From IMG/VR virus record IMGVR_UViG_2713896737_000012: a stretch of 9,926 bases of DNA; one strand, given 5' to 3'. Of the stretch, positions 1 to 7,232 are shown piece by piece. The notes beneath the pieces were generated by a model. The model saw nothing but the letters and a program-made list of their open reading frames with translations, searched no databases and was not told where the DNA came from. Origin of the DNA: a virus (Duplodnaviria > Heunggongvirae > Uroviricota > Caudoviricetes). Position 1 is the first letter of the stretch; each line of letters starts with the position of its first letter. A program made the translations under genes and the position numbers.

Positions 1-1849
1 CCTTCGCCAGCGCAGCCGGATTATCACCGTACACGTCCCGAAGACGCTGCGCTTCAGACTCCCGCTGCGCCTGACGGTCAGTGAGACCGCGGGCTTTTGC
101 GCTGATGGCGGCCTGCTTCGCGCTCTGCTGCTGCTCAAACCGCACCGCCTGCTGTGCCAGCTCATTCAGGCGTTTCTGGTGTTCAACTTTGTCTCCCAGC
201 TCAGCCAGCTGGCGTTTGTACTCCAGCGTCTCGTCTTTATGCGCCAGCAGGAATTTTTCCTGCTCAGATAACTGCCGTTTCGTGGCAGCCTCTTTCAGGA
301 CCGCATACTGATTTTCCGCTTTCCATAAATCGCGACGCTGCCGGCTGATTTTCTCATTCGCACCGCTGTGTTTTTCCAGCGTCCTGAGCTCGGTTTCAAG
401 CGCCAGCAGGGCAGCATGCGCCTGGTCTTCCTGACGCTCACCGGCTGACACTTTGACTCCTGACGACTTCGGCTTTTTCAGCGTCGATTCATAATCCTTT
501 TTCGCCGCCGCCATCAGCGTGTTGTAATCCGCCCGCAGGATTTTCCCGTCTTTCAGGGCCTTATTCAGTTCTTCCTGACGGGCGGTATATTTCTCCAGCG
601 GCGTCAGCAGACGCTCATACGCCTTCTGCGCCTCTCCGGTATACTTCAGCTGTGATGCGTCCCGTTCGGCCCGGTCCCTGGCGGCCAGTTCACCGGCTTT
701 TTCCATATCCGACTGCAGCGTGGCCGCTGCCAGCCCCAGACGGGCATTTTCCCGGTCATTCCATGCGCCCTGAAGGTTGGCCCGGAAAGAGGCGGTTTTT
801 CCCCGGCGCTGGCTCCGGCTCTGGTACCACTGCCATTTTTTATCCGCCTCATCAAATGCCTTCTGTGCACTGGCGAGCATATCCGCTGAGGACTCAGGAC
901 GACCGATATCCAGAATGGCATCCCACATCGATTTGAATGCCTTCCCGGTTTTATCCGCCCAGGTCTCCAGTGTCCCCATGTTTTCTTTCAGGCGACGGGT
1001 CTGCTCATCAAAGCCTTTCGTGGCGATATCGTTCGCCGCCTGTAAGGCCCCGGCCTCATCACCGGAACGCTGCAGCTGCGCAACATACGCAATCTGCTCT
1101 GCCGTCACGTTACGGAACTGGCGCACCATCGCAATCAGCCCCGACGTAGGGTCGGTGGTCAGTTTTCCGAAAGCCTCTGCAACCTTGTCCACCTCCACAC
1201 CGGATGCAGAAGCAAAACGCGCGACACTCTGGTTGATGGCATCAAACTGTTCACCACCACGCACACCGGCATTCACCAGGGCTGCCAGTGACTCTCTCGC
1301 CTGGTTAAACGTCAGCCCTGCTGCCTGCCCGGCTCTTGAGAGCGTCAGCATGCGATCGGCAGTCAGTCCGGACTGATTACCGGAAAGAACCAGGGTTTTA
1401 TTAAACGCTGAAAGCGTGGAATCTCCCTGGTACCAGGCGTACACCAGCGCACCTGTCGCCACCGCCAGCGAGGTGACCCCGACCATCGGCAGGGTGATCG
1501 CACCGGCAAGCCCCCTGAACATGGGGATCATCCCGCCGAAGGAGTCCTTCACCTGACCGCCCTGTTGCAGCAGGATCAGCCAGGGATTCTGACCACCGGC
1601 AAGCTGCGTGGCGATATCCGTAAACTGTGCGGGCAGGGTTCGCATGGCCGCTTTATACTGCCCGACGGAAATCCCGGCTTTTTGTGCAGCCAGCGCCTGG
1701 CGGCTCAGGCCCTGTTCAACAGCACTGGCGGTTTTTCTGACGTCGGTATCCAGACCTGAAAAATGACGCCTTACCCGGCTCATCTGCTCATCGAAACGGA
1801 CAGCATCCAGACTCAGGTCAATAACAAGATCACCAACCGGCTGGGACAT
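1..1849 (-). CDS. H: Tail tape measure protein, N-terminal ~616 codons; partial, continues beyond the window start
   Basis: ATG is the reverse complement of 1847-1849, preceded by a GGGAGG RBS. Hand translation (MSQPVGDLVIDLSLDAVRFDEQMSRVRRHFSG...GISVGQYKAAMRTLPAQFTDIATQLAGGQNPWLILLQQGGQVKDSFGGMIPMFRGLAG...) is open to position 1 and closely matches lambda gpH as recalled. Start overlaps the 3' end of the T frame, as in lambda. Confidence 0.88.
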   Translation of the reverse strand, partial: MSQPVGDLVIDLSLDAVRFDEQMSRVRRHFSGLDTDVRKTASAVEQGLSRQALAAQKAGISVGQYKAAMRTLPAQFTDIATQLAGGQNPWLILLQQGGQVKDSFGGMIPMFRGLAGAITLPMVGVTSLAVATGALVYAWYQGDSTLSAFNKTLVLSGNQSGLTADRMLTLSRAGQAAGLTFNQARESLAALVNAGVRGGEQFDAINQSVARFASASGVEVDKVAEAFGKLTTDPTSGLIAMVRQFRNVTAEQIAYVAQLQRSGDEAGALQAANDIATKGFDEQTRRLKENMGTLETWADKTGKAFKSMWDAILDIGRPESSADMLASAQKAFDEADKKWQWYQSRSQRRGKTASFRANLQGAWNDRENARLGLAAATLQSDMEKAGELAARDRAERDASQLKYTGEAQKAYERLLTPLEKYTARQEELNKALKDGKILRADYNTLMAAAKKDYESTLKKPKSSGVKVSAGERQEDQAHAALLALETELRTLEKHSGANEKISRQRRDLWKAENQYAVLKEAATKRQLSEQEKFLLAHKDETLEYKRQLAELGDKVEHQKRLNELAQQAVRFEQQQSAKQAAISAKARGLTDRQAQRESEAQRLRDVYGDNPAALAK

Positions 1850-2294
1850 ATCTCACACCTCCCGGAATCCCCGCTGAAGCCATCATTAATGCGGCATCAT
1901 CCACCATGACATCCGCCACATCCGCAGACGATAAAATATCGCGCCCTCCGTCCCCACCGAACCGGACGCCTCCGGCAAGTCCTGCCGCTTTCTGCATCAG
2001 CATTTTGTCCTCATCCGGCCTCTCCACCTGCTCTTCCTCATGCCGGGGGACAAGCAGACTGAAATCAGAGGGATGCATATCCGGATCGCAAAAAAACAGG
2101 CTGAGTACAGCGTACGTCAGCCCGGAAAAATGCATATCCAGCTGGGTATCCTGAAAATAATGCGTGCGGTAAAAACGGTGCCAGTCGGCATATTCGGTGG
2201 ATGTCATCCCGGCAAGCATGGCGCGCCAGTCGGGTCTCCCCATCTCACGCGCCAGTCTGAGGGCAAAGTTCAGCTCGCCGTCGAAGACTTTCCC
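1830..2294 (-). CDS. T: T-frame segment of the tail assembly chaperone, expressed only as a G-T fusion after a -1 frameshift
   Basis: The -1 frame relative to G is open from the slippery site to a TGA at 1830-1832. Its translation (...VFDGELNFALRLAREMGRPDWRAMLAGMTSTEYADWHRFYRTHYF...) matches lambda gpT as recalled. There is no independent RBS or start requirement, as in lambda. Confidence 0.75.
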   Translation of the reverse strand, partial: GKVFDGELNFALRLAREMGRPDWRAMLAGMTSTEYADWHRFYRTHYFQDTQLDMHFSGLTYAVLSLFFCDPDMHPSDFSLLVPRHEEEQVERPDEDKMLMQKAAGLAGGVRFGGDGGRDILSSADVADVMVDDAALMMASAGIPGGVRYVPAGW

Positions 2295-2701
2295 GCAGAA
2301 AAATCATCATCAGTCAGCGTGTTATTTTTCGCCACTTCAGTAATATCAGTATCCGGACGAACAGCCCCGCTCATCCCGGACAGGCACAACACCACGTCTT
2401 CCGCCCGGGCAATGGCATCGGCAGGCCAGGTGGTGAGCACTTCCTGCTCTATCTTCATCACGGCCTCATTCATTGACGGTGACTGCGTTTTCTGTGGATG
2501 GTTATGCCACAGGGACATCGCCACCAGAAACGCGCCGGTTCTGACGAGATCTTCCACGCTTACCTGCAGGTTGCCGCTGGATTCTGCCTGTTCTGCACGC
2601 CGTTTCAGGAGGGCAAGATGCTCGATACGCTGCAGCGCAGACAATTCGGAAAGCGTGACAGACACACCGTTATATTCAAATTGTTCTGTTTTCAGAAACA
2701 T
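2270..2701 (-). CDS. G: Tail assembly chaperone G
   Basis: ATG is the reverse complement of 2699-2701, preceded by a GGAGG RBS. The product MFLKTEQFEYNGVSVTLSELSALQRIEHLALLKRRAEQAE...AMSLWHNHPQKTQSPSMNEAV matches lambda gpG as recalled. The track ORF starting at 2773 is an upstream extension with no homology. Confidence 0.88.
   Translation of the reverse strand: MFLKTEQFEYNGVSVTLSELSALQRIEHLALLKRRAEQAESSGNLQVSVEDLVRTGAFLVAMSLWHNHPQKTQSPSMNEAVMKIEQEVLTTWPADAIARAEDVVLCLSGMSGAVRPDTDITEVAKNNTLTDDDFSAGKSSTAS
2288..2294 (-). promoter_or_regulatory. Programmed -1 ribosomal frameshift slippery heptamer G_GGA_AAG at the end of G
   Basis: Plus strand 2288-2294 is ctttccc, so the minus strand reads GGGAAAG in the G frame as G GGA AAG (Gly-Lys). 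This is the same heptamer and position as the lambda G/GT site, and the -1 frame continues into the T homolog. Confidence 0.8.
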
Positions 2702-2714
2702 GTATGACCTCCGT

Positions 2715-3377
2715 TTACCCTGCAGCGCCCGCTTCAGTAACGGTGACTTCAGCCACTGCGGCGAACTGACCATTTCCGCTCACCACAGGGATCTGCACCT
2801 TACCTGTCGCCACGCCGTTTACCGTAATTGTCATATCTTTCACACTAATGGTGGCTTTCGACGGATCGGCGGAAACCGCTCTGAACGTCTTGTCTGTTGC
2901 ACTTTCCGGCTCAAAAGAAACCGTCAGGGTGGTTGTTTTCCCTTTTGCCACCGTACCGGATGTCGGCGTCACCTTAATCGCACTGACCGGCGTAATTTTG
3001 CTGCGTTCTTCCGCTACAGAAGGTTTACCCACGTTAGTGACTTTCACCGTGCGGGTGATCACTTCTTTCGCCGTCACGGCCTTACCGATACTGCTGACCC
3101 AGCCACGAAACACATCCACCGTGCCATTCGGAAAACGGATTTTATAGGCCCGGACATCGCCGCTTTCAAACCAGCCTATAAGCCCTTTCTGGCCTTCCTC
3201 TCCCGGTTTCCAGGCCAGCGTAAAACTGGTATCACCTGCAGATTTCTGCCCCTGCCCGGTCGCGGTCCAGTCCGCGTCTTCATCATCCAGGTAGTTATCA
3301 TCGTAGGATTCTGCCGTCATCTCGCCCGGCGTCAGATCCTTCACCTTAGCCAGTCGCTGCCAGTCATCGTCTGACAA
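2715..3377 (-). CDS. V: Major tail (tube) protein V with C-terminal Ig-like domain; native N-terminus and start codon missing
   Basis: Translation (...[58 protein letters not shown]...[41 protein letters not shown]...) matches lambda gpV. The same frame is open upstream to a stop at 3498-3500 and already encodes [12 protein letters not shown] (lambda V residues ~9-20), but contains no ATG or GTG. The track start at 3377 is a TTG. Stop TAA at 2715-2717. Confidence 0.75.
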
Positions 3378-3436
3378 CGGGTTTGCATAGGCGTCACCCT
3401 GACCGTTATAAACCCACAGGGTGGTACCGGCTCCTT

Positions 3437-3703
3437 TTACCGGCTCCAGGGGAATTCGTGTTTCGGCTTGACGTAGCCCGGACGTAACACGCGGGTTTCA
3501 CCACCGCGATGACGCAGCACTTTTCCTTCAACAACCGGGGAGACATAGGCCGCCACCGGCGTTTTTCCGGTAATTTTGTCCAGCATCACCTCTTCGGTAT
3601 GGAAATTCACCGTACGGCGGAAAAACAGCTCCAGAAACAGCGCACGAAATTTCACTTTTTGTTCGGTATAACCGAGTAACTGGCGGGTCGTAAACAATCC
3701 CAT
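3437..3703 (-). pseudogene. E: Major capsid protein E remnant: about 82 N-terminal codons, then 5 out-of-frame codons and a stop
   Basis: ATG is the reverse complement of 3701-3703 with an AAAGGAAC RBS. MGLFTTRQLLGYTEQKVKFRALFLELFFRR...[31 protein letters not shown] aligns with the lambda gpE N-terminus (MSMYTTAQLLAANEQKFKFDPLFLRLFFRE...PGYVKPKHE). Homology stops at ...KPKHE and the frame then reads FPWSR-stop. Lambda gpE is about 341 aa. Confidence 0.8.
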
Positions 3704-3731
3704 AAATCAGTTCCTTTCATTCAGAAATCAG

Positions 3732-3753
3732 TCAGGCCACCGCGGTGGCCTGA
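3732..3753. promoter_or_regulatory. Perfect 22-bp palindrome TCAGGCCACCGCGGTGGCCTGA in the D-E intergenic space; predicted GC-rich RNA hairpin
   Basis: Read directly from the sequence: it is self-complementary over 22 bp, lies 8 nt past the D stop codon (3761-3763) and about 28 nt before the E start (3703). A function as attenuator, terminator or processing site is inferred only. Confidence 0.45.
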
Positions 3754-3760
3754 TAACGTG

Positions 3761-4108
3761 TTACGGCAGCGCCGCGTGACTCAGGGCACTGCCGGCAAAG
3801 GCATTTGCCTTTTTGTGTTCATCCACACTTTCAGGCCAGCGGATTGCCTCCGTCGCAAAGGTCCCCGACTTGTAATAGGTCAGTACCGTCTCTGTGCCTT
3901 CAAGCGGCAGTACCAGTATGCCAACTGCACTACCGGCTTTCTGTCCGTCCCAGACCACCAGTTTCCCGCTGGCTTCATCCAGCATCAGGGGCGTCAGTGC
4001 CGGTGTTGCCGAGGAAATCCCGCTGCTGCCTGTGGCGGTATGAGCCGGATCATTACCGGCAAAAATACGTACTTCCGCACGCTGTTCAGTGATGTTTTTC
4101 GTTACCAT
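3761..4108 (-). CDS. D: Head decoration protein D
   Basis: ATG is the reverse complement of 4106-4108 with a GGAGG RBS. The 115-aa product (...NDPAHTATGSSGISSATPALTPLMLDEASGKLVVWDG...YYKSGTFATEAIRWPE...) matches lambda gpD (110 aa; [37 protein letters not shown]...FYKSGTFRYEDVLWPE). Confidence 0.9.
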   Translation of the reverse strand: MVTKNITEQRAEVRIFAGNDPAHTATGSSGISSATPALTPLMLDEASGKLVVWDGQKAGSAVGILVLPLEGTETVLTYYKSGTFATEAIRWPESVDEHKKANAFAGSALSHAALP

Positions 4109-4144
4109 ATTGTAAAAACCTCCTGTTGATGGTCAGCACTGACT

Positions 4145-4960
4145 TCATGGCATGGCCATGAGCATTTTCACGTCCGCATCACCGTCTGCTGACGTCTGTG
4201 GCACGCCACCCTGTACCGCAGCCGGTGAATGGTTCGCCATGATGCGTTCAAACAGGGCGGTTGTGGATGCAGAGACCGGTTCTGCCTTACCTGATCCCGC
4301 AGCCAGCACAGCCCGGGCGCTCTCCACAGTCATTCCCGGGCAGGCAGCCAGCTGTTCAGCCTGCGCCTCAGCCCCTTTTGCCTCATCCAGTGCCATGATC
4401 TGATCACGGAGTGAGGGTCCGGCATCCGCCTGCGGTGAAGCAGCCAGGATCGGGCGGGCTTTTTCCACCGTCATCTCCGGCATCGCCGCCAGCGTTGCCG
4501 CCAGTTGTTCACGACCGTTCGCTTCTTCACACGCCATAATGCGATCGGCTTCACTCTGCGTGGATGCCACCGGCTGCTGCGGTGCCGCCGCGGCCAGAAT
4601 CGCCCGGGCCTGTTCAACGCTCATGCCCTGTTGTCCTGCCAGCATCGTGGCAAGCTGTTCACGTCCTTTCGCTTCCTGGCATGTCAGGATCCCCATCACT
4701 CGCTGGTTCTCCTGCGCGGCGGCTTCCGTTGCAGTTAATTGCGGCATAGTGCCTCCTCTGACATTACTGTTCAGCGCCGTGGCCATCACACTGATGGCAT
4801 CCGACGCATTGACTAATTCATCCGCCAGCCCGGCATCAATGCCGGACTGACCTTCAAAAACGGCGGCCTCTGTTCCCGTGACGGCATCAACAGACAGACC
4901 GGTAAACATGGCCACTTTTTCGGCAAACATCCGGCGCGCCGCATCAATGCGCTGCTGCAT
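4145..4960 (-). CDS. nu3: Possible nested in-frame scaffold protein (Nu3-like) from an internal start within C
   Basis: In lambda, Nu3 is translated from an internal in-frame start in C. Here an internal ATG (reverse complement of 4958-4960; Met231 in MQQRIDAARRMFAEK) sits 4 codons upstream of the position aligned to the lambda Nu3 start, with a weak GAGG about 11 nt upstream. This is by analogy only. Confidence 0.3.
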   Translation of the reverse strand: MQQRIDAARRMFAEKVAMFTGLSVDAVTGTEAAVFEGQSGIDAGLADELVNASDAISVMATALNSNVRGGTMPQLTATEAAAQENQRVMGILTCQEAKGREQLATMLAGQQGMSVEQARAILAAAAPQQPVASTQSEADRIMACEEANGREQLAATLAAMPEMTVEKARPILAASPQADAGPSLRDQIMALDEAKGAEAQAEQLAACPGMTVESARAVLAAGSGKAEPVSASTTALFERIMANHSPAAVQGGVPQTSADGDADVKMLMAMP

Positions 4961-5650
4961 GTTCTGGCGAACCTCTGCCGGTAAGGCTTCAAACTGATTG
5001 CCATCCACCTTGTGCGCCCCTGAGTAAATCAGCGTGATATCCACACCGGCCTGCGCCAGATGACCGGCATAGCTGACATGGCTCATCATCACGCCAATGG
5101 AGCCGATACGGGATGTCTGGGTAACCAGCCGTCGGGAGCAGGCCGACGCCAGCAGCATGGCTGCAGAACAGGCCGTGTCATTGCACAGTGCCCAGACCGG
5201 CTTCTGCTGACGGAGGCGGTAAATCATGTCAGCGCAGTCAAACGCGCCGGCGGCCTGCCCGCCCGGACTGTCAATGTCCAGCAGTACGCCCCGCACCTGG
5301 CTATCCGCCATTGCCTGCTGAAGACAGGCGACAATGCCGTCATAGCCTGTCATTCCGGAAAATGGCCGCATACCCCCCAGCCGGTGCACCAGCGTGCCGG
5401 TCACCGGCAGTACAGCAATACCGTTCACCACCCGGTAAACACGGGCCGGTCGTTTACCTCCGGCCATGTACTCGTCCGTTTCAGCCAGCATTCCGGGAGC
5501 ATCAAGCTGTACCTGCTGCTGTGGTACCGAAAGACTTGCTGCCCCCATCTCGCGCCCGAGCGCGCAAAAGAAAACCCGCGCATAGGCGGGCTCCAGAAGC
5601 AGCGGTTCATTGAATGCTGCGGCAATAATGTGTGAAAGATTACGTCTCAC
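4145..5650 (-). CDS. C: Head maturation protease / minor capsid protein C (S49 SppA-like) with a repeat-containing scaffold-like C-terminal region
   Basis: The 501-aa ORF has an N-terminus RRNLSHIIAAAFNEPLLLEPAYARVFFCAL matching lambda gpC (LRNLPHIASMAFNEPLMLEPAYARVFFCAL) and a conserved core (...PVWALCNDTACSAAMLLASACSRRLVTQTSRIGSIGVMM...LIYSGAHKVDGN...). The most upstream start in frame is a GTG (reverse complement of 5648-5650), overlapping the 3' end of B as in lambda. Exact start is uncertain. Confidence 0.88.
   Translation of the reverse strand: MRRNLSHIIAAAFNEPLLLEPAYARVFFCALGREMGAASLSVPQQQVQLDAPGMLAETDEYMAGGKRPARVYRVVNGIAVLPVTGTLVHRLGGMRPFSGMTGYDGIVACLQQAMADSQVRGVLLDIDSPGGQAAGAFDCADMIYRLRQQKPVWALCNDTACSAAMLLASACSRRLVTQTSRIGSIGVMMSHVSYAGHLAQAGVDITLIYSGAHKVDGNQFEALPAEVRQNMQQRIDAARRMFAEKVAMFTGLSVDAVTGTEAAVFEGQSGIDAGLADELVNASDAISVMATALNSNVRGGTMPQLTATEAAAQENQRVMGILTCQEAKGREQLATMLAGQQGMSVEQARAILAAAAPQQPVASTQSEADRIMACEEANGREQLAATLAAMPEMTVEKARPILAASPQADAGPSLRDQIMALDEAKGAEAQAEQLAACPGMTVESARAVLAAGSGKAEPVSASTTALFERIMANHSPAAVQGGVPQTSADGDADVKMLMAMP
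4256..4702 (-). repeat. Three diverged in-frame tandem repeats (~144-159 bp; ~48-53 aa) in the C/scaffold C-terminal region
   Basis: Protein units: RVMGILTCQEAKGREQLATMLAGQQGMSVEQARAILAAAAPQQP..., RIMACEEANGREQLAATLAAMPEMTVEKARPILAASPQ..., IMALDEAKGAEAQAEQLAACPGMTVESARAVLAAGSG.... DNA units are similar but not identical, so the duplication is old. Confidence 0.7.
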
Positions 5651-7232
5651 GGGGTGTTGTCTCCTCTTCCGGCCTGCGACTCTCCGCTATCTGCTGCTGA
5701 TACGCCTGCGCTATCCACACCGGACGTGAGAGTCCGGCTTTTTGCCGCTCTGCAGATTCCCTGACCTGCTGGCGGAAAATGTCCTGATAATCCTCGCCCA
5801 TCAGCGCCGGCTCTTTCTCATACGTGCTCAGTCCGGCCTCAATGCGCATCACCGATTCCTGAACCTCCTTGAGCCCGTCAATGGCCATTCTTCCGGCACC
5901 AATCCACTCTGCCCGTGACCAGGCTGATCGCGCCTGATAAAAATCAAAACGCGCCCGTGGCGGACGGATAATCCCCCGAAGAAGTGCCTCTTCCAGCCAG
6001 TAGGAAAACATCTGCGTGGCCAGCCGGGCCGCAATAAATTTTCGCCGCCCCATAAAATAGCGCCACGACTCATTGGCAGAGGCCCTGGCACTTGAATAAC
6101 TGACCTTCGAGTAATCACGGGACAACTGTTCGTAGGAAACGCCAAGACCGGCGGCGATATACCGCAGCAGCGCCTGTTCAAGCGCCGAAAATCCATTGTC
6201 TGAATCCTGCGCAGTCTGTAGTTTCAGATCATCCCCGGGGAAAAGGTGCGGAATTTTGACACCACCCAGCGTCACGTTATTCGTGTCATACCAGCTGGAG
6301 AACTTCTCCAGAATATTAATAAGCGGATTATCCTTCTGCCCCTGCGGCGCACCGGCGATATATTCAAAGGCCTTTTCGGTATCAAGGTCACTTTCAATCG
6401 TCGCTGCATACATGGCTTTCACAATGGCCGACTGAAGCTGTGTTGCCTGCAGGGAATCGAGCATCTTCAGCCGTTCCATGACGCTGTAAAACTGGTTGGC
6501 CCCACGGGTCTGCCCGTCCTCCACCGGCTCGAAAATATGCAGCATGGCCGGACGCCCGGTGGGAAGTTCACGCGGGATCCGTTCCCATCGTCCACTCCCG
6601 GAGCGAGGAAAATCATCCTCACAGATATGGTACGCAACGGCACGGCCATATCGATCGACCTCCACCCCGGCCCGCAGAAAACGGTTCCCCATACCGTGTC
6701 CTGGCGTGTCCACCCGTTTCGGACTCACGGCTTTAAAACGCGTACGGAATAACTGCGTGGTTTCCGTATCCCAGACCGGCTGCACAAAGATTTCGCCGTT
6801 AAACGCATGAACGCCCACACCTTCACGGATAAATTCCGTGAACGTGCGTTTTCCTTCCACGTCGATCTCGCCAGACATCCCTTCGGCGTATTCCGACCAG
6901 GCCGCCTCCACCTCATCGACAAAGCTTTTTGCTGCGGTCTCCCGCATCCCCAGCCAGCGCCAGTTCGGACGGTAGCTGATAAGAAACATATGCCCGACAA
7001 TGTGATCCTTATGCAGTGCCACCGCATTGGCCGCTATTCCGTTATTGCGCACCAGATCATCTGCCCGGGCATTCCCCAGACGCAACGCGGGCAGCAGGGC
7101 CGCATCGGCACTCTGCGCCGGTGGCAACCACTCCGCCATTTGCCCGCCAAATCCTGCACCGCCCCCGTTGTAGCTGAGACTCTCACGAAGCGGAACGCCG
7201 TTCACATCAATCAGGACAGGCGTTCGTTTCAT
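5640..7232 (-). CDS. B: Portal protein
   Basis: 530-aa ORF with ATG as the reverse complement of 7230-7232, overlapping the W stop as ATGA. It matches lambda gpB (533 aa) throughout, e.g. ALLPALRLGNARADDLVRNNG, FEPVEDGQTRGANQFYSVMERLKMLDSLQATQLQSAIVKAMYAATIES, LLRYIAAGLGVSYEQLSR, GRMAIDGLKEVQESVMRIEAGLSTYEKE. Confidence 0.93.
   Translation of the reverse strand: MKRTPVLIDVNGVPLRESLSYNGGGAGFGGQMAEWLPPAQSADAALLPALRLGNARADDLVRNNGIAANAVALHKDHIVGHMFLISYRPNWRWLGMRETAAKSFVDEVEAAWSEYAEGMSGEIDVEGKRTFTEFIREGVGVHAFNGEIFVQPVWDTETTQLFRTRFKAVSPKRVDTPGHGMGNRFLRAGVEVDRYGRAVAYHICEDDFPRSGSGRWERIPRELPTGRPAMLHIFEPVEDGQTRGANQFYSVMERLKMLDSLQATQLQSAIVKAMYAATIESDLDTEKAFEYIAGAPQGQKDNPLINILEKFSSWYDTNNVTLGGVKIPHLFPGDDLKLQTAQDSDNGFSALEQALLRYIAAGLGVSYEQLSRDYSKVSYSSARASANESWRYFMGRRKFIAARLATQMFSYWLEEALLRGIIRPPRARFDFYQARSAWSRAEWIGAGRMAIDGLKEVQESVMRIEAGLSTYEKEPALMGEDYQDIFRQQVRESAERQKAGLSRPVWIAQAYQQQIAESRRPEEETTPRET

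Follow-up and report, generated by a model that had tools for sequence, protein, structure and literature searches.

Two prophages of the EHEC O157:H7 strain Sakai, Sp4 (CP-933M) and Sp14 (CP-933U) (PMC2884950), are the closest described relatives of the locus analysed here. Asadulghani et al. 2009 scored the head and the major tail functions as defective in both (Table 1; PMC2669165), and found that amplification of the two occurs only through regional replication of Sp5 and Sp15 (PMC2669165). Sp4 DNA was recovered in DNase-resistant particles despite the head and packaging defects, with no transfer to K-12, while Sp14 DNA was not packaged; Sp4 was proposed to be complemented by other prophages, with the terminase supplied by Sp14 (PMC2669165).

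The window, by which we mean the whole 9,926-nt stretch of DNA analysed (IMG/VR record IMGVR_UViG_2713896737_000012), is 99.8–99.96% identical to Sakai Sp14 and Sp4 over 9.6–9.8 kb. Sp4 differs from it at 4 positions and Sp14 at 18 (17 substitutions and 1 indel) over about 9.6–9.8 kb, and both prophages, in Sakai as in EDL933, have the same gene order, the same gene content and the same junction between a truncated capsid gene (E') and a truncated tail-tube gene (V'). An IS629-like insertion at codon 10 of nu1 sets the window apart from them. Its head module belongs to the phage 21 type. The D–E' DNA is 97.6% identical to shp/gene 7 of phage 21 (genes 1–7, shp), the gene order is the same and the protease/scaffold protein has 501 aa in both; however, phage 21 is a complete phage with another type of Nu1, and identity of its V reaches only 79%. 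With lambda, the window shares the order Nu1-A-W-B-C-D-E-FI-FII-Z-U-V-G-T-H, with 57% identity between E' and gpE (residues 1–83) and 79% identity between V' and gpV (starting at gpV residue 6).

An intact relative is a prophage of the O55:H7 strain USDA5905, located at yodB/zinT, which is the site of Sp14 in O157. Its head and tail modules are of the same types as those of the window, with an E that is identical over residues 1–84 and a V with 99% identity, but here E (342 aa) and V (250 aa) are full-length, and FI, FII, Z and U are present. This prophage mixes the cargo of Sp14 (espJ and a tccP-like gene) with features of the Sp4 type (sodC, a CPBP protease and a SASA esterase). As compared to these systems, the window very likely holds late genes of a defective lambdoid prophage of E. 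coli O157:H7, of the Sp4/Sp14 (CP-933M/CP-933U) type and with a phage-21-type head module, which suffered one 2,522-bp deletion that was then copied between prophages.

The late genes follow the lambda order and all lie on the minus strand of the window, as judged from the open reading frames and a Pfam search:

9802–9926, minus strand: right end of an IS629/IS1203-like element of the IS3 family (terminus ...CCGGGGCGGTTCA), inserted in nu1; 96% identity to the right end of Sakai IS629.
9319–9801, minus strand: nu1, terminase small subunit, without its first 9 codons; Pfam Phage_Nu1, profile positions 62–163 only.
7419–9347, minus strand: A, terminase large subunit, 642 aa, open here; Pfam GpA_ATPase and GpA_nuclease.
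7229–7435, minus strand: W, head-tail joining protein; Pfam gpW.
5640–7232, minus strand: B, portal, 530 aa; Pfam Phage_portal_2; 60% identity to the lambda-type portals of Sakai Sp8 and Sp11.
4145–5650, minus strand: C, prohead protease/scaffold with nested Nu3, 501 aa; Pfam Peptidase_S49 and phage 21 annotation.
3761–4108, minus strand: D, head decoration protein, shp type; Pfam HDPD.
3732–3753, minus strand: 9-bp GC-rich hairpin between D and E'; terminator-like match.
3437–3703, minus strand: E', capsid pseudogene, with E nt 1–251 (3703–3453) followed by out-of-frame PWSR-TAA; Pfam, lambda gpE and intact-relative alignments.
3453–3462, minus strand: deletion junction, where E-side AACACGAATT pairs with V-side AACACCAAAT; three-way alignment.
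2715–3452, minus strand: V', tail-tube gene, nt 16–753 of a 753-nt gene; alignment to intact V and Pfam.
2270–2701, minus strand: G, tail assembly chaperone; Pfam Phage_TAC_2.
1830–2243, minus strand: T part of the G-T frameshift product; Pfam Phage_tail_T.
1–1849, minus strand: H, tape-measure gene, first 616 codons, open to the window edge; stop-free translation.

One edge of the window falls inside H and the other inside the IS element, and neither a chromosomal flank nor a cargo gene lies within. G carries the slippery sequence G GGA AAG near 2288–2294 for the G-T frameshift. The hairpin between D and E' (TCAGGCCACCGCGGTGGCCTGA) is perfect over its 9 bp and might serve mRNA stability or attenuation. 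The C-terminal third of protein C (window about 4200–4750) contains three diverged units of about 40 aa (...EA.GREQLA..LA....M.VE.AR.ILAA...), which account for its length of 501 aa as compared to 439 aa in lambda; the repeat is undetectable at the DNA level, and no DNA tandem repeats were found in the window.

To define the lesion, we used the USDA5905 prophage as the reference, in which E (1,029 nt), FI, FII, Z, U and V (753 nt) are contiguous. The two flanks of the window align to it with 96.7% and 97.4% identity, with a 10-nt overlap and an offset of 2,522 bp. Since the flanks are only 96.7–97.4% identical, the O55:H7 prophage would be a cousin rather than the direct ancestor. In the three-way alignment, the E side reads ...AAACACGAATT and continues beyond the breakpoint with TAATTAC, the V side reads ATGGCAACACCAAAT before and CCCCTTGAG after the breakpoint, and the window joins ...AAACACGAATT to CCCCTGGAG, with the V sequence resuming at 3452. 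The deletion removes E nt 252–1029 and all of FI, FII, Z and U, along with the ribosome-binding site and codons 1–5 of V; as 2,522 cannot be divided by 3, the E and V frames are offset by one position. These results agree with the sequence-only reading that capsid gene E is cut and fused out of frame to V, with FI, FII, Z and U absent, as the Pfam search and the alignments to lambda and to the intact relative all indicated. Its estimates of about 82 retained codons and a loss of about 3 kb captured the truncation but not the sizes, as 83 codons plus 2 nt of E are retained and 2,522 bp are lost (the equivalent loss in lambda coordinates is about 2.6 kb).

The breakpoints lie in imperfect 10-nt repeats, AACACGAATT in E (codons 81–84) and AACACCAAAT in V (codons 3–5), which match at 8 of 10 positions, the last base included. 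An equally good match occurs in a fraction of 5.4e-4 of the possible E x (FI...V) breakpoint pairs; thus, the microhomology at the junction is non-random, albeit imperfect: at the crossover itself, just 1 nt is exactly shared. Given the rarity of such a match, a microhomology-guided slippage deletion seems probable, and replication slippage between AACACGAATT in E and AACACCAAAT in V would be the most likely origin of a single illegitimate recombination event removing 2,522 bp. It is the repeat in its E version that persists in the product, which fits a nascent strand that was copied from E and then re-annealed at V. Illegitimate recombination between two prophages was also considered as the origin and set aside; the intact relative has E to V contiguous and in the same order, and a simple internal deletion is enough. 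The expected outcome is a capsid stub of 88 aa plus a tail-tube gene without a usable start, which would leave both head and tail assembly dead in cis.

The E' open reading frame (3703–3437) encodes 88 aa and matches only profile positions 1–80 of the 329 positions of Pfam Phage_cap_E (PF03864), whereas the intact homologues have 341–342 aa. It shares its first 84 residues without a difference with the 342-aa capsid proteins of phage 21 and the O55:H7 prophage; PWSR and a stop follow. The stub is a fragment of E, as the sequence-only reading held, and not a complete small protein. RefSeq describes it as 'major capsid protein, incomplete, missing C-terminus' and marks the capsid gene as a pseudogene. 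The inference that the element cannot build a capsid of its own is likewise borne out, as the deletion takes most of E and the start of V together with the whole of FI, FII, Z and U.

To assess how widespread the lesion is, we searched 5,426 complete E. coli genomes with junction queries of 701 bp and 140 bp. Both queries matched at full length and 100% identity in 299 of them, and every listed carrier that names a serotype is O157(:H7). The junction was also present in 10 IMG/VR contigs, none of which reaches into the IS, while it was absent from the GTDB species representatives and no GenBank phage record carries it. One of the contigs, IMGVR_UViG_2541047168_000023, has the identical junction but a G-T-H region only 85–87% identical to that of the window, so the deleted block also sits in a different tail-gene mosaic. 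The junction was not found in O55:H7 USDA5905, and in O55:H7 CB9615 the serT-hyaA site, occupied by Sp4 in O157, is empty (13104–13617 of the extracted stretch). A deletion private to the genome of the window was accordingly rejected, as the lesion is widespread in O157:H7 and lacking in the single O55:H7 genome inspected at that site; as far as the small O55:H7 sample shows, only the O157:H7 lineage carries the deleted state.

In nine of ten sampled carriers, the junction is present at two places per genome. The first locus adjoins serT-hyaA, with sodC and a tccP2 pseudogene, and corresponds to Sakai Sp4 (ECs_1110/ECs_1111); the second adjoins yodB, with tccP and espJ, and corresponds to Sakai Sp14 (ECs_2730/ECs_2729). 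The cargo genes beside the two loci, tccP2 in the one and tccP/espJ in the other, identify them as Sp4/CP-933M and Sp14/CP-933U. Sakai Sp4 and Sp14 do not differ at a single position along 9,439 bp that begin where ISEc8 is inserted in nu1 and extend across the junction into H (window about 135–9573), and a further 693 bp upstream of ISEc8 are identical, while the flanks are only 90–97% identical. The combination of an identical 9.4-kb block with diverged flanks suggests that homologous recombination, probably a recent gene conversion, transferred one lesion between the two prophages; the deleted block is now widespread among O157:H7 genomes. The deleted E-FI-FII-Z-U segment itself had no blastn match in the two 50-kb Sakai stretches that hold the late genes of Sp4 and Sp14.

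The tail-tube gene retains most of its coding capacity. The V' frame spans 3455 to 2715, and both its tail-tube domain (PF16461, 1–135 of 135) and its Big_2 domain (2–79 of 79) are complete; the V part is 96–98% identical to the V genes of Stx phages with lambda-like tails. The sequence-only description of a full-length V without its initiator thus holds for the domains, but exactly 5 codons (MATPN) and the native Shine-Dalgarno sequence (GAGGACGAT) are also gone. A tail-tube protein could in principle still be supplied if V' were expressed from ATT 3455, or if translation of E' were coupled to reinitiation or frameshifting. The intact domains favor this idea, as do the RefSeq annotation of a non-pseudo 246-aa protein starting at that ATT (WP_029208397.1) and the position of the E' stop, 16 nt downstream of the ATT. 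However, the native ATG was deleted together with its Shine-Dalgarno sequence, the frame contains no ATG, GTG or TTG from the upstream stop to 3377, and on reading the sequence we found no Shine-Dalgarno-like motif ahead of ATT 3455. V' thus lacks a ribosome-binding site and a canonical start codon of its own, and the Sakai annotation picks a different, internal start (GTG, 3344). Furthermore, the sequenced 50-kb stretches of both Sakai prophages lack Z and U, which are needed to finish the tail. We therefore regard continued expression of V' as very unlikely. Given the lack of a Shine-Dalgarno motif ahead of the ATT, V' is best considered a 5'-truncated pseudogene that has presumably lost expression, and WP_029208397.1, the RefSeq 'phage tail protein' whose ATT start codon arose beside the junction, is probably the annotation rescue of this pseudogene and not a real protein.

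The terminase genes were described as intact in the sequence-only reading, but this does not hold for nu1, which is cut at codon 10 by the IS629/IS1203-like element. The 185-aa open reading frame at 9319–9876 is an IS-nu1 read-through fusion, in which IS-derived residues replace VATQTEVAR, the start of the DNA-binding region: the native Nu1 of Sp14 and of the O55 prophage begins VATQTEVARHLSLTDRQ, while the frame in the window reads ...KTGAVHLSLTDRQ. The IS-nu1 junction was not found in one piece in any of the complete E. coli genomes, and the insertion is therefore a further, strain-specific hit. The window taken in full likewise had no perfect match in one piece among these genomes. Independently of it, ISEc8 is inserted further inside nu1 in Sakai Sp4. 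Gene A contains a run of nine G residues at window 9079–9087 (C on the plus strand). The run has 9 residues in Sakai and in the window, 10 in TR01 Sp4 and 8 in FORC_044 Sp14, and the latter two genes are annotated as 'frameshifted'; this variation could reflect either real slippage or homopolymer sequencing error. In Sakai Sp14, a 1-nt deletion at window position 89 splits H, which is open in the window and in Sp4.

These lesions bear on the suggestion of a satellite-like arrangement, according to which the element keeps its genes for terminase, portal, protease and decoration protein and relies on co-resident prophages for the capsid, head-completion and tail-completion proteins that its packaging requires. 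The presence of Sp4 DNA in DNase-resistant particles and the complementation proposed for it (PMC2669165) are in line with such helper dependence, and Sakai Sp11 could serve as a donor in part, as it has FII (3' part)-Z-U at 94% nucleotide identity to the deleted segment and a 98% identical V. A matching capsid nevertheless appears to be missing: a phage-21-type capsid gene was not found in the Sakai prophages examined, megablast gave no third match to the phage-21-type E segment in O157 genomes, and the only intact E genes found in Sakai, those of Sp8 and Sp11, are of the lambda type, with 57% amino acid identity to the E' stub and 67.5% nucleotide identity to the missing part. Nor do the packaging and tail functions look preserved, with Sp14 DNA unpackaged and Sp4 not transferred to K-12 (PMC2669165), nu1 interrupted in separate events by ISEc8 (Sp4) and an IS629-like element (window), A, H and J split or frameshifted in relatives, and both H and J split in Sakai Sp14. 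The same deletion also destroys the element's own tail genes (Z, U and the start of V). As compared to known phage satellites (P4-like, PICI and cf-PICI), which are roughly 10–20 kb, have few structural genes and are kept functional for helper-dependent packaging, the related elements here are 44–50 kb and their packaging genes are hit. We thus give helper dependence of this kind very little credence, and a designed capsid-less satellite is unlikely; the element shows decay, not design. Sp4 DNA is packaged (PMC2669165), yet a matching capsid gene was not found in the Sakai prophages examined. One speculation is that Sp4 DNA is co-packaged with the Stx2 prophage Sp5, whose replication would include it as flanking DNA.

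Retention of the 88-aa N-terminal E' fragment and its neighbours for a function also appears highly improbable, whether the fragment poisons the capsid assembly of related incoming or co-resident phages, or whether the capsid-less head module (portal, protease/scaffold, decoration and terminase) packages Sp4/Sp14 DNA with a heterologous capsid protein. The stub still has its own Shine-Dalgarno-like sequence. However, nothing supports selection on the stub or its neighbours; the identity of its copies reflects their young age, and decay is under way in the other genes of the module.

The last alternative, which the sequence-only reading had raised, is an assembly or cloning artefact; examples would be a repeat that collapsed in assembly or a deletion made in vitro with EcoRI. 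The only EcoRI site of the window (GAATTC, 3452–3457), lying exactly on the junction, might seem to point to it. It has practically no chance of being correct, because the identical junction occurs in 299 complete genomes, each assembled independently, and at two Sakai loci, and the parental breakpoint sequences (GAATTT and AAATCC) contain no EcoRI site, which excludes an EcoRI-based construct and makes the site a by-product of the fusion.

Internal deletion followed by copying between prophages thus accounts for the locus. The lesion had already been catalogued, in the scores of Asadulghani et al. 2009 (PMC2669165) and in the RefSeq pseudogene mark, and is ordinary prophage decay; to this record we add the breakpoints and the size of the deletion, its two copies within an identical block, its distribution and an intact O55:H7 relative. 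In itself the finding matters little, being textbook prophage decay in the best-studied EHEC strain, but the lesion is now defined by its exact breakpoints, its microhomology and its 2,522-bp size. Meanwhile, the occurrence of one lesion in two prophages probably illustrates the homogenisation of co-resident lambdoid prophages by one another, defects included.
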